A stretch of DNA of 64,000 nucleotides from Escherichia coli (lineage in GTDB: Bacteria; Pseudomonadota; Gammaproteobacteria; Enterobacterales; Enterobacteriaceae), in NCBI RefSeq assembly GCF_045037415.1, contig NZ_CP173438.1; one strand, given 5' to 3'. Both the position numbers and the translations under genes were made by a program. The notes under the pieces were generated by a model, which was not told the DNA's origin, did not search any database, and saw nothing but the letters and a program-made list of their open reading frames with translations. Within the stretch, counting starts at the first letter, position 1; every line of letters starts with the position of its first letter. Positions 48,918 through 50,314 of this stretch are shown in pieces.

Positions 48918-49760
48918 TTATTTATCCATAGCGGTTACAGAGTTAGCGAGCCTTTTTTCTTTGCCAAACGGGGTCGTATAGAAGCGTTGTTCAATGCCAT
49001 AAAGCAGTAACTTCAACTCATCGTCATTAGATATTTCAAACTTCTGATTTTCTTTATCGAATTTCAGCTTCTGTTCACCGCAGTAACCGTCGATATAATC
49101 AAGCATGTTAGCTTTATCGTCAGCAGACATCGCATCAAGTGTTGCCATAGCAAGGCCAATACGTTTTCTATTAGGTTTTGAGACGCTATCTACGTTGTAG
49201 TCATTACCCAACTCTATAAACTGTGCATCTAAAAACTGCTCAACTTCTTCTTTTGTTGCTTCCTTGTACAACTCATCGATACCTTTAAAAATGCTCGAGA
49301 TCGTTGCCAGATTTTTGAATATCAAGGTATCGGCCACTTTGAAGTACACTGCATCAGGTAAGGCGTTTATTACTAAACGTGTTTGGCTCTTCTCAATTTC
49401 TGCGGCTTCACCAAAAACAAGCGTTTTGCGTTTTACGAATAGGCTTGGAGTGATTTTTTGAAAGTAAAAATCATTACCTTGAATTGCAAATAAGTAGGCG
49501 ATCTTGGCGAAGTTATCTTTGGTTAAGTCATCGTAGTCTTTTGAATCATAGTCTTTTTTTAGCAGTTCAATACAAAACTCTTTTTGACTAAAGTCTTCAA
49601 TTTTAAACCATGAGTCTTCGTCAAGGTTATGGTCTGGATTGTATGGAATACAGGCATTTAAGTCGATTGTGACGGTATCAAAAAGAGATTGATCAGAAAC
49701 CAATTTGAAAATGCGTTTTTTTGCTCTAGTTTTTATATGTGCCAGTACATGGTCCATCAT
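48918..49760 (-). CDS. hypothetical 280-aa protein embedded in hsd operon (candidate defence partner)
   Basis: Start codon overlaps the upstream membrane-protein stop (TAATG); acidic, Lys/Asp-rich soluble protein; no family recognised by eye. Confidence 0.6.
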   Translation of the reverse strand: MMDHVLAHIKTRAKKRIFKLVSDQSLFDTVTIDLNACIPYNPDHNLDEDSWFKIEDFSQKEFCIELLKKDYDSKDYDDLTKDNFAKIAYLFAIQGNDFYFQKITPSLFVKRKTLVFGEAAEIEKSQTRLVINALPDAVYFKVADTLIFKNLATISSIFKGIDELYKEATKEEVEQFLDAQFIELGNDYNVDSVSKPNRKRIGLAMATLDAMSADDKANMLDYIDGYCGEQKLKFDKENQKFEISNDDELKLLLYGIEQRFYTTPFGKEKRLANSVTAMDK

Positions 49761-50314
49761 TATCCTCGCTCGATAAATGTGTAATTATTGATTCGATAAG
49801 CCAATGATATTTCGATGTCATCTGGCTTCTTGTAGCGCTCTCGGCTAATAAGGAAAATGGCCGTTCCGTTTTTGGTTGTAATGTTATAAAACTCATAACC
49901 AAACAGTAAAAACAATGGGTTAAAGTAGAGTGCTTGCGATAAGAGAGTAAAAACAAACAAAACGCCATAAACAAACCACAATGTCTCCCAGTTACCAATG
50001 CTCAACGCCACGAAAAAGTAACCCAAATAACTTGGTAGGAAGCTGTTATTGGCATGCTCAATACTCGCTACTTCACCCGCCTTAAAATCGTCTTTACCCA
50101 AATACTTACTCAGCCAAATACTCAATCCAGTCGATAAAACAGGGATAAGAAAATAGAGTAAATATGATACTGCGTTCGGAAGTGCTGCTATCCAATCGAA
50201 GCAAGCGAAACCACCAAAGAAATATCCGAGTGAGTACCCTTTTTGTACCGCAAAGATAATCACTAGTAGTGATGTTGCATTGAACGTAAGTAAAACCCGA
50301 AACGCAGTATTCAT
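49760..50314 (-). CDS. predicted 4-TM membrane protein embedded in hsd operon (184 aa)
   Basis: Start codon overlaps hsdR stop (TAATG); about four hydrophobic helices then a short polar C-terminus. Confidence 0.6.
   Translation of the reverse strand: MNTAFRVLLTFNATSLLVIIFAVQKGYSLGYFFGGFACFDWIAALPNAVSYLLYFLIPVLSTGLSIWLSKYLGKDDFKAGEVASIEHANNSFLPSYLGYFFVALSIGNWETLWFVYGVLFVFTLLSQALYFNPLFLLFGYEFYNITTKNGTAIFLISRERYKKPDDIEISLAYRINNYTFIERG

Follow-up and report, generated by a model that had tools for sequence, protein, structure and literature searches.

Kiwa, the two-gene KwaA/KwaB system of E. coli O55:H7 RM12579 and ECOR strains, active against phages and plasmids, was reportedly described by Doron et al. 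in 2018. The subject here is a pair of open reading frames (ORFs), ORF-A and ORF-B, found at the 3' end of a Type I restriction-modification (R-M) operon in a 64-kb stretch of Escherichia coli contig NZ_CP173438.1 (hereafter the window), which we identify as a divergent Kiwa pair. The mechanistic study of Kiwa (Zhang, Todeschini et al. 2025, PMC11785009) describes a membrane supercomplex of KwaA tetramers and KwaB dimers that senses membrane disturbance from phage attachment, DNA ejection or conjugation, with KwaB binding entering DNA non-specifically and stalling replication and late transcription. According to the same study, both genes are required for protection, canonical Kiwa protects when cloned alone, the DNA mimic Gam binds and inhibits KwaB and is reported to be partitioned between KwaB and RecBCD, and three Kiwa clusters are recognized. 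A Type I R-M context is not mentioned in that paper, whose text was searched for "type I".

Defense functions embedded in Type I operons have been described in other systems. PrrC is reported to be almost exclusively embedded in Type I R-M. PrrC in EcoprrI resembles the window pair as a defense function distinct from R-M that lies inside a Type I hsd operon or closes it, in the same orientation, but it is a single soluble tRNA nuclease, kept latent by the R-M complex until a phage anti-restriction peptide triggers it, whereas the window module is a two-protein predicted membrane complex of another fold, with relatives outside R-M loci. Two-gene defense cassettes in the same orientation are described for DarTG2, within the Type I hsd operon of the RptR-RMS-DarTG-M48 island of enteropathogenic E. 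coli (EPEC; PMC12255303), and for TgvAB, in the Type I R-M locus of Vibrio cholerae VPI-2 (PMC11411939). These islands further resemble the window in having a small putative regulator upstream (RelB/DinJ-like in the window) and an accessory gene downstream (rhuM in the window), and in both the embedded system and the R-M system are thought to be complementary. DarTG2, however, is an ADP-ribosylating toxin-antitoxin pair and TgvAB a GmrSD-like type IV restriction enzyme, whereas the window encodes, by analogy to characterized Kiwa, a putative membrane sensor plus DNA binder; moreover, the window cassette follows hsdR and does not separate it from hsdS; a between-genes position does occur in other loci of its clade. 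A "guilt-by-embedding" survey (Payne, Hughes, Fineran, Jackson 2024, bioRxiv 10.1101/2024.01.29.577857) reports that defense systems make up most of what is embedded in Type I R-M, BREX, DISARM and Hma systems, with the orientation of the host system in 96.7% of cases. The window rhuM corresponds to its candidate PDC-S05. Kiwa is not mentioned in the text of that survey, and a clade-specific, coupled association of Kiwa with Type I operons is not described there.

ORF-A is matched by nine PADLOC KwaA models, the best being PDLC00216 (E 9e-16, residues 2-182 of 184 against model positions 3-170 of 173). Hydropathy indicates four hydrophobic helices, and an AlphaFold2 (AF2) model built from a 30-member alignment, with a predicted local distance difference test score (pLDDT) of 85.3, places helices at residues 3-25, 47-71, 93-105 and 109-125, and strands at 73-77 and 82-87 in the loop after the second transmembrane helix and at 141-147, 152-157, 169-174 and 179-182 toward the C-terminus. 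The resulting topology, four transmembrane helices plus a six-stranded cytosolic beta-barrel drawn from intracellular loop 1 and the C-terminus, is the same as that reported for KwaA from Kiwa cryo-electron microscopy (PMC11785009 section 6). Searched against PDB with Foldseek, the model gave significant matches only to KwaA chains (9mrx_A, 9mrr and 9mrg; E 2e-5 to 9e-4, probability 1.0, TM-score no higher than 0.63). The family is strongly conserved: over its members from Gamma-, Beta- and Deltaproteobacteria and Firmicutes, 36 alignment columns are invariant and column identity averages 72%.

ORF-B is matched by three PADLOC KwaB models, best by PDLC00222 (E 7e-14, residues 33-276 of 280 against 42-289 of 292), and has no transmembrane-like segment by hydropathy. 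An exhaustive HMMER search returned 534 representatives of its relatives at 50% clustering (E<=1e-3). The AF2 model, built from a 64-member alignment of diverse relatives, has a pLDDT of 92.8, and its only significant Foldseek matches in PDB are KwaB structures (9mtn, 9mrx_D and 9nyu; E 2e-7 to 2.5e-6, probability 1.0), aligned over the full length at TM-scores of 0.55-0.57 and 10-12% identity, with the next PDB match at E 0.3. Its conserved N197-R198-K-R motif is a candidate counterpart of residues in solved Kiwa that contact DNA (R142, R167, K187, R233, N134 and D169) or line the interface. Pfam-A has no significant match to either protein, and the sole profile and fold matches, to Kiwa, argue against a role outside defense. 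A match to LptB in the NCBIfam scan of the pair was judged spurious.

By fold, PADLOC profile and gene order, ORF-A and ORF-B are KwaA and KwaB. A preliminary description of the window had read them as a four-helix membrane protein with a soluble partner and had tentatively named Kiwa as the closest match; hydropathy and the AF2 models agree with the first point, and the PADLOC hits together with the exclusive structural matches to solved KwaA and KwaB bear out the second. Its other suggestion, an undescribed R-M-coupled module, is not supported in the sense of a new protein family, and a confident match to Kiwa makes the pair a known system. In the window and in solved Kiwa alike, kwaA lies directly 5' of kwaB in a two-gene module; KwaA has about 185 residues, four transmembrane helices and the six-stranded cytosolic barrel, and KwaB is soluble, of about 280-315 residues, with the DUF4868 fold (both folds, for the window, from the AF2 models). 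The window KwaB, at 280 residues, is about 20-35 residues shorter than solved chains of 298-315, and the window clade differs further in having no evident promoter of its own and in its coupling, at most loci, to the hsd genes of a Type I system. Judged from sequence, the pair is part of a remote, divergent Kiwa clade outside the coverage of Pfam and NCBIfam; Pfam model PF16162 (KwaB) matches just 2 of 64 diverse ORF-B family members at E<=1e-3. Structure prediction and Foldseek were needed for the link to solved Kiwa, because sequence searches of PDB, including phmmer with ORF-A and with ORF-B, found no Kiwa chain.

Names attached to these proteins in public databases vary. RefSeq/PGAP labels both window proteins "hypothetical protein" (WP_001090220 and WP_000968685), and a full-text literature search for the two accessions found no paper. 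In GenBank and UniRef the product name "ATP F0F1 synthase synthase" is spread over the ORF-B family in Vibrio, Shewanella, Aeromonas, Alteromonas, Proteus and E. coli; we reject this label, there being no match to an ATP synthase family in Pfam or NCBIfam. Neighbors of the ORF-B model in AFDB50 grade without a break from entries so named to entries named "DUF4868 domain-containing protein", one of the latter being Q5F8R2 of Neisseria gonorrhoeae FA1090, at 43% identity to ORF-B. A 2025 pangenome paper lists Vibrio genes named "ATP F0F1 synthase; hypothetical protein" as DefenseFinder "Kiwa-KwaB_2", together with KwaA and Type I R-M genes (PMC12409351), so that at least one automated tool already names the family Kiwa.

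Gene calls in the window were based on the six-frame ORF list and the minus-strand sequence. The features, from upstream to downstream on the minus strand, are as follows.

56883-57389, minus strand: RelB/DinJ-like ribbon-helix-helix protein, 168 aa (TIGR02384 RelB_DinJ, 41 bits on residues 7-78, just below cutoff; PGAP name)
54836-56815, minus strand: hsdM, Type I methyltransferase subunit, 659 aa (PADLOC MTase_I PDLC03029, E 2e-243, full length; PGAP)
54834-54838, minus strand: TAATG hsdM/hsdS junction, 1-nt stop/start overlap
53550-54836, minus strand: hsdS, Type I specificity subunit, 428 aa (PADLOC Specificity_I, E 4e-97)
53548-53552, minus strand: TAATG hsdS/hsdR junction, 1-nt stop/start overlap
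50314-53550, minus strand: hsdR, Type I restriction/translocase subunit, 1078 aa (PADLOC REase_I, E 3.5e-30; TIGR00348, E 8e-49)
50312-50316, minus strand: TAATG hsdR/kwaA junction, 1-nt stop/start overlap
49760-50314, minus strand: kwaA-like gene (ORF-A), 184 aa (PADLOC KwaA match, AF2 model and Foldseek)
49758-49762, minus strand: TAATG kwaA/kwaB junction, 1-nt stop/start overlap
48918-49760, minus strand: kwaB-like gene (ORF-B), 280 aa (PADLOC KwaB match, AF2 model and Foldseek)
47848-48897, minus strand: rhuM-family gene, 349 aa (PADLOC defense candidate PDC-S05, E 8e-167; PGAP "virulence RhuM family protein")
47807-47836, minus strand: hairpin CAGCCCT-16 nt-AGGGCTG, just 3' of the rhuM stop, read by eye from the sequence

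The ORF list agrees with the gene order first proposed, hsdM, hsdS, hsdR, membrane protein, 280-aa protein, rhuM, and all four overlaps in the preliminary description read TAATG on the minus strand. The R-M system is Type I, with hsdM, hsdS and hsdR all intact and all on the minus strand; TIGR00348 and TIGR00497 match the window hsd proteins with scores under their cutoffs. Both kwaA and kwaB have start codons preceded by a Shine-Dalgarno (SD)-like GAGG or GGTG, and rhuM starts 20 nt past the kwaB stop. No promoter-like site was found upstream of kwaA in a consensus scan of the region, the promoter and terminator scans being uninformative in that site counts were at or below shuffle expectation. 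The hairpin after rhuM, which the terminator scan of the minus strand did not flag, is possibly a weak terminator, and rhuM is probably the last gene of the transcription unit. At the other end, the RelB/DinJ-like gene lies 67 nt upstream of hsdM, has no toxin gene beside it, and encodes a protein whose C-terminal half has no family match but which is kept at 88-89% in the same position in two Vibrio loci (L002 and L003 of the survey below). By analogy with RptR in the EPEC R-M/DarTG island, it may be a candidate regulator and the first gene of the operon.

A survey of one genome per species for the recurrence of this arrangement gave 39 loci, in Gamma-, Beta- and Deltaproteobacteria and Firmicutes, whose ORF-B relative is 40-96% identical. 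Both genes are detectable in 37 of them, always with kwaA directly before kwaB and, wherever both are intact, with a junction of -8 to +5 nt; the remaining two (L037 and L038) are kwaB fragments. Linkage to R-M was judged by clustering of flanking ORFs and inspection of gene maps in the 35 loci with enough upstream sequence. Same-strand Type I hsd genes directly flank kwaAB in 27 of these; the same insert does recur in other hsd operons. The gene orders, with M, S and R for the hsd genes and A and B for kwaA and kwaB, are these.

M-S-R-A-B, as in the window, 8 loci: L002, L003, L014, L016, L022, L023, L025, L033
R-M-S-A-B, 14 loci: L004, L006, L007, L009, L010, L012, L013, L015, L017-L020, L024, L030
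M-S-A-B-R, 3 loci: L028, L029, L032
S-A-B, on short contigs, 2 loci: L008, L026

In one further locus, L011, a Type I operon lies next door in divergent orientation. The adjacent HsdM proteins fall into seven groups with less than 50% identity between groups. In 20 of the 27 R-M-linked loci the kwaA start either shares bases with the stop codon of the hsd gene before it or is no more than 2 nt away from that stop, a geometry which, found in that many independent loci, indicates hsd-kwaA coupling beyond chance. The early view that the two genes are built into the restriction operon, and not merely adjacent to it, is upheld, the overlaps being real and conserved across species, with no internal promoter evident.

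Other neighbors of kwaAB are defense genes as well: DRT UG5-nitrilase, Hachiman, a Type IV enzyme, a Type II methylase plus helicase, and PADLOC candidates. In the R-M-S-A-B loci L006, L015, L020 and L024, the gene directly after kwaB, across a gap of 12-22 nt, encodes a DRT UG5 reverse transcriptase-nitrilase (about 1070 aa), and Hachiman (hamA-hamB) follows in L014 and L033; these six loci are co-oriented defense arrays of four to seven genes. A rhuM gene follows kwaB in L002, L003 and L005 also, and follows the kwaB remnants in L037 and L038. It accompanies the cassette in some loci at 82-84% identity, and in L005 the genes upstream are not Type I.

Locus L048, from N. gonorrhoeae NZ_CP119142 (755777-774616), has the order hsdR-hsdS-kwaA-kwaB-hsdM at 3880-11511, with an 8-nt overlap of hsdS and kwaA and a KwaB that shares 42% identity with ORF-B; strain FA1090 encodes a protein of this type, Q5F8R2. 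NZ_CP119142 is a gonococcal chromosome, listed as "plasmid" in PLSDB. Identification of L048 as NgoAV was considered and set aside, as papers on NgoAV give hsdM-hsdS1-hsdS2-hsdR without extra genes, and no name is assigned. Plasmid matches to the pair are otherwise distant, at less than 60% identity, the gonococcal "plasmid" matches being in reality chromosomes, and the phage collection contained no homolog. Distant relatives in metagenomes lie mostly on contigs of 1.5-6.5 kb, too short for R-M linkage to be judged.

Comparison of the window by blastn with loci that carry unrelated R-M genes shows similarity opening no more than 17 nt upstream of the kwaA ATG and closing at the kwaB stop. These bounds indicate that the mobile unit is exactly these two genes. 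The kwaAB genes are 37-39% GC, against 47-48% for hsdM, hsdR and rhuM. Cassettes with 82-86% protein identity sit behind R-M systems whose HsdM proteins are unrelated at a tblastn threshold of E 1e-5, and relatives at 40-53% identity either have no hsd neighbor (standalone) or lie beside Type II or other systems. In R-M-S-A-B loci a conserved hsdS 3' end (...gactggcttctccccatgctaatgaacggccaggtNacNgtNaaATG) occupies the 45 nt that lead up to kwaA (L004-L020, L026 and L030). Degenerate remnants of this hsdS end also precede kwaA in L005 (9399-9443) and L040 (3622-3666), where hsdS itself is gone and Type II or Type IV restriction genes stand in its place; each such remnant is a putative molecular fossil of an ancestral hsdS-kwaA junction. 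In the window, just the last ~10 nt before the kwaA ATG resemble that junction. We infer that hsdS-kwaA was the common ancestral context and that the hsdR-kwaA fusion in the window would represent a secondary capture in which the overlapping stop and start were retained.

Within E. coli, a 9.6-kb block is 100% identical in the chromosomes of 75 complete genomes and 95-99% identical in one more (76 of 5426). In strain 219 it lies within a genomic island, rich in insertion sequences (IS), at tRNA-Sec (selC), where genes for a P4-type integrase and a phosphoethanolamine transferase, together with tia and mobI(A/C), lie beside it. In the window, a mobI(A/C)-like gene at 47404-47790 on the plus strand converges on rhuM. 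This gene suggests that the segment derives from an element mobilizable by IncA/C plasmids, an origin that fits the near-identical operon in Vibrio loci L002 and L003 (88-89% DNA identity). Also in the window, two identical 377-aa IS110-family (ISEc45) transposase ORFs stand in tandem on the minus strand, at 43187-44320 and 44734-45867, about 1.5 kb apart; strain 219 has a single ISEc45 copy there, which points to local duplication in the source strain of the window.

The explanation we favor, and hold to be probable by a modest measure, is that an autonomous, divergent Kiwa cassette has joined, at its 3' end, a Type I R-M operon of the E. coli selC island. By analogy with characterized Kiwa, inner-membrane KwaA tetramers would anchor KwaB dimers; KwaA would sense membrane disturbance by phage attachment, DNA ejection or conjugation; and KwaB would then bind incoming DNA independently of sequence and block its replication and late transcription, giving the locus its putative anti-phage activity. 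Through overlapping stop and start codons, kwaAB would be carried by the hsd transcript and need no separate promoter, so that two complementary layers would be expressed and transferred together by the host: Type I R-M, dependent on sequence and methylation, and Kiwa, independent of both. The best reading of the recurrent capture by many R-M families, which the gene maps demonstrate, is that the Kiwa module has been recruited repeatedly into restriction operons for co-expression and co-transfer. Autonomy is argued because near-identical cassettes stand behind unrelated R-M systems, because relatives occur without hsd genes, and because canonical Kiwa protects alone.

Several observations weigh against this explanation. 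The window pair has just 10-19% identity to solved Kiwa proteins, with TM-scores of 0.55-0.63. ORF-A scores 25.4 bits against the NCBIfam KwaA equivalog NF041622, whose cutoff is 100, and has no match in Pfam-A; ORF-B has no match to Pfam PF16162; and searches of PDB sequences with the family profile of ORF-A (hmmsearch) and with that of ORF-B found nothing. Co-transcription of kwaAB with the hsd genes is a proposal drawn from gene geometry. Finally, the linkage to R-M, seen in 27 of 35 loci and across seven or more HsdM families with the coupling kept, is tighter than hitch-hiking needs, and could reflect functional dependence on the Type I enzyme.

This last point leads to an alternative, which we consider unlikely, in which this Kiwa clade forms a functional unit with the Type I enzyme instead of acting autonomously. 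In one version the pair would be a PrrC-like guard, backup or decoy, active when DNA mimics such as Ocr and ArdA block R-M, much as Gam is reported to be partitioned between KwaB and RecBCD; in another it would serve as a platform in the membrane that focuses restriction where DNA enters. Besides the frequency of Type I linkage across HsdM families and in three or four gene orders, integration gains from loci where the pair lies truly between hsd genes (M-S-A-B-R in L028, L029 and L032, and R-S-A-B-M in L048), from the stop/start coupling kept in 20 of 27 loci, from the hsdS 3' remnants that accompany the cassette in L005 and L040 despite loss of hsdS, from the binding of KwaB by the DNA mimic Gam (PMC11785009), and from the precedent of PrrC as an effector reported to be almost exclusively embedded in Type I R-M. 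Against it stands the finding of near-identical cassettes behind unrelated R-M families, with no sign of co-adaptation to a particular Hsd partner; a cassette common to unrelated families argues against a specific Hsd protein partner. The relatives at 40-53% identity that are standalone or beside Type II or other systems count against it too, as does the ability of canonical Kiwa to work without R-M (PMC11785009). A cooperation in which KwaAB works with Hsd, by marking the DNA-entry site or capturing DNA, or in which KwaB titrates or senses Ocr and ArdA as it does Gam, is by this analogy conceivable and in our estimate quite unlikely; if true, the operon would amount to one machine with two layers, and selection would have favored their coupling time and again, in no fewer than seven Type I families.

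That the pair is a decaying or inactive passenger, kept in the E. coli island only by linkage to R-M, seems to us highly unlikely. Broken copies do occur: L024 has a frameshift in kwaA, L033 a shortened kwaA, L034 and L035 a split kwaB, and L037 and L038 (Mangrovibacter; 10001-11446) only a kwaB fragment of residues 116-234 fused next to an intact rhuM. The island, too, is full of IS elements and pseudogenes. The window ORFs, however, are intact and of full length for the family, with start codons and SD-like sites; the pair is 100% conserved in 75 E. coli genomes; and constraint on the family is strong, as the invariant columns of KwaA attest. A role outside defense, as a small transporter or channel in the membrane that is paired with a soluble protein, or as a toxin-antitoxin-like addiction module that stabilizes the R-M island, is scarcely credible: KwaA-type tetramers have been likened to ion channels (PMC11785009) and ORF-B carries its legacy ATP synthase name, but the sole profile and fold matches are to Kiwa and the annotated neighborhoods are all of defense genes (Type I, II and IV R-M, DRT UG5-nitrilase, Hachiman and PADLOC candidates), and we reject the transporter and toxin-antitoxin readings, and with them chance adjacency, on these grounds and on the kept coupling.

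Both protein families, the Kiwa system, and the embedding of defense cassettes in Type I operons are already known. What appears mildly new, from sequence comparison, is the systematic, translationally coupled embedding of one Kiwa clade in Type I operons of many families; no description of a predominant, coupled attachment of this kind was found in the literature searched. For annotation, a widespread "hypothetical" pair becomes nameable as KwaA/KwaB, in Vibrio, Shewanella, Aeromonas and N. gonorrhoeae as well as in 76 complete E. coli genomes. Whether embedded systems cooperate with their hosts has been asked of DarTG2, TgvAB, BrxU and PrrC, but not of a membrane-sensing system. Repeated capture with kept coupling makes this Kiwa clade a natural test case for distinguishing shared regulation or transfer from mechanistic cooperation of embedded systems.

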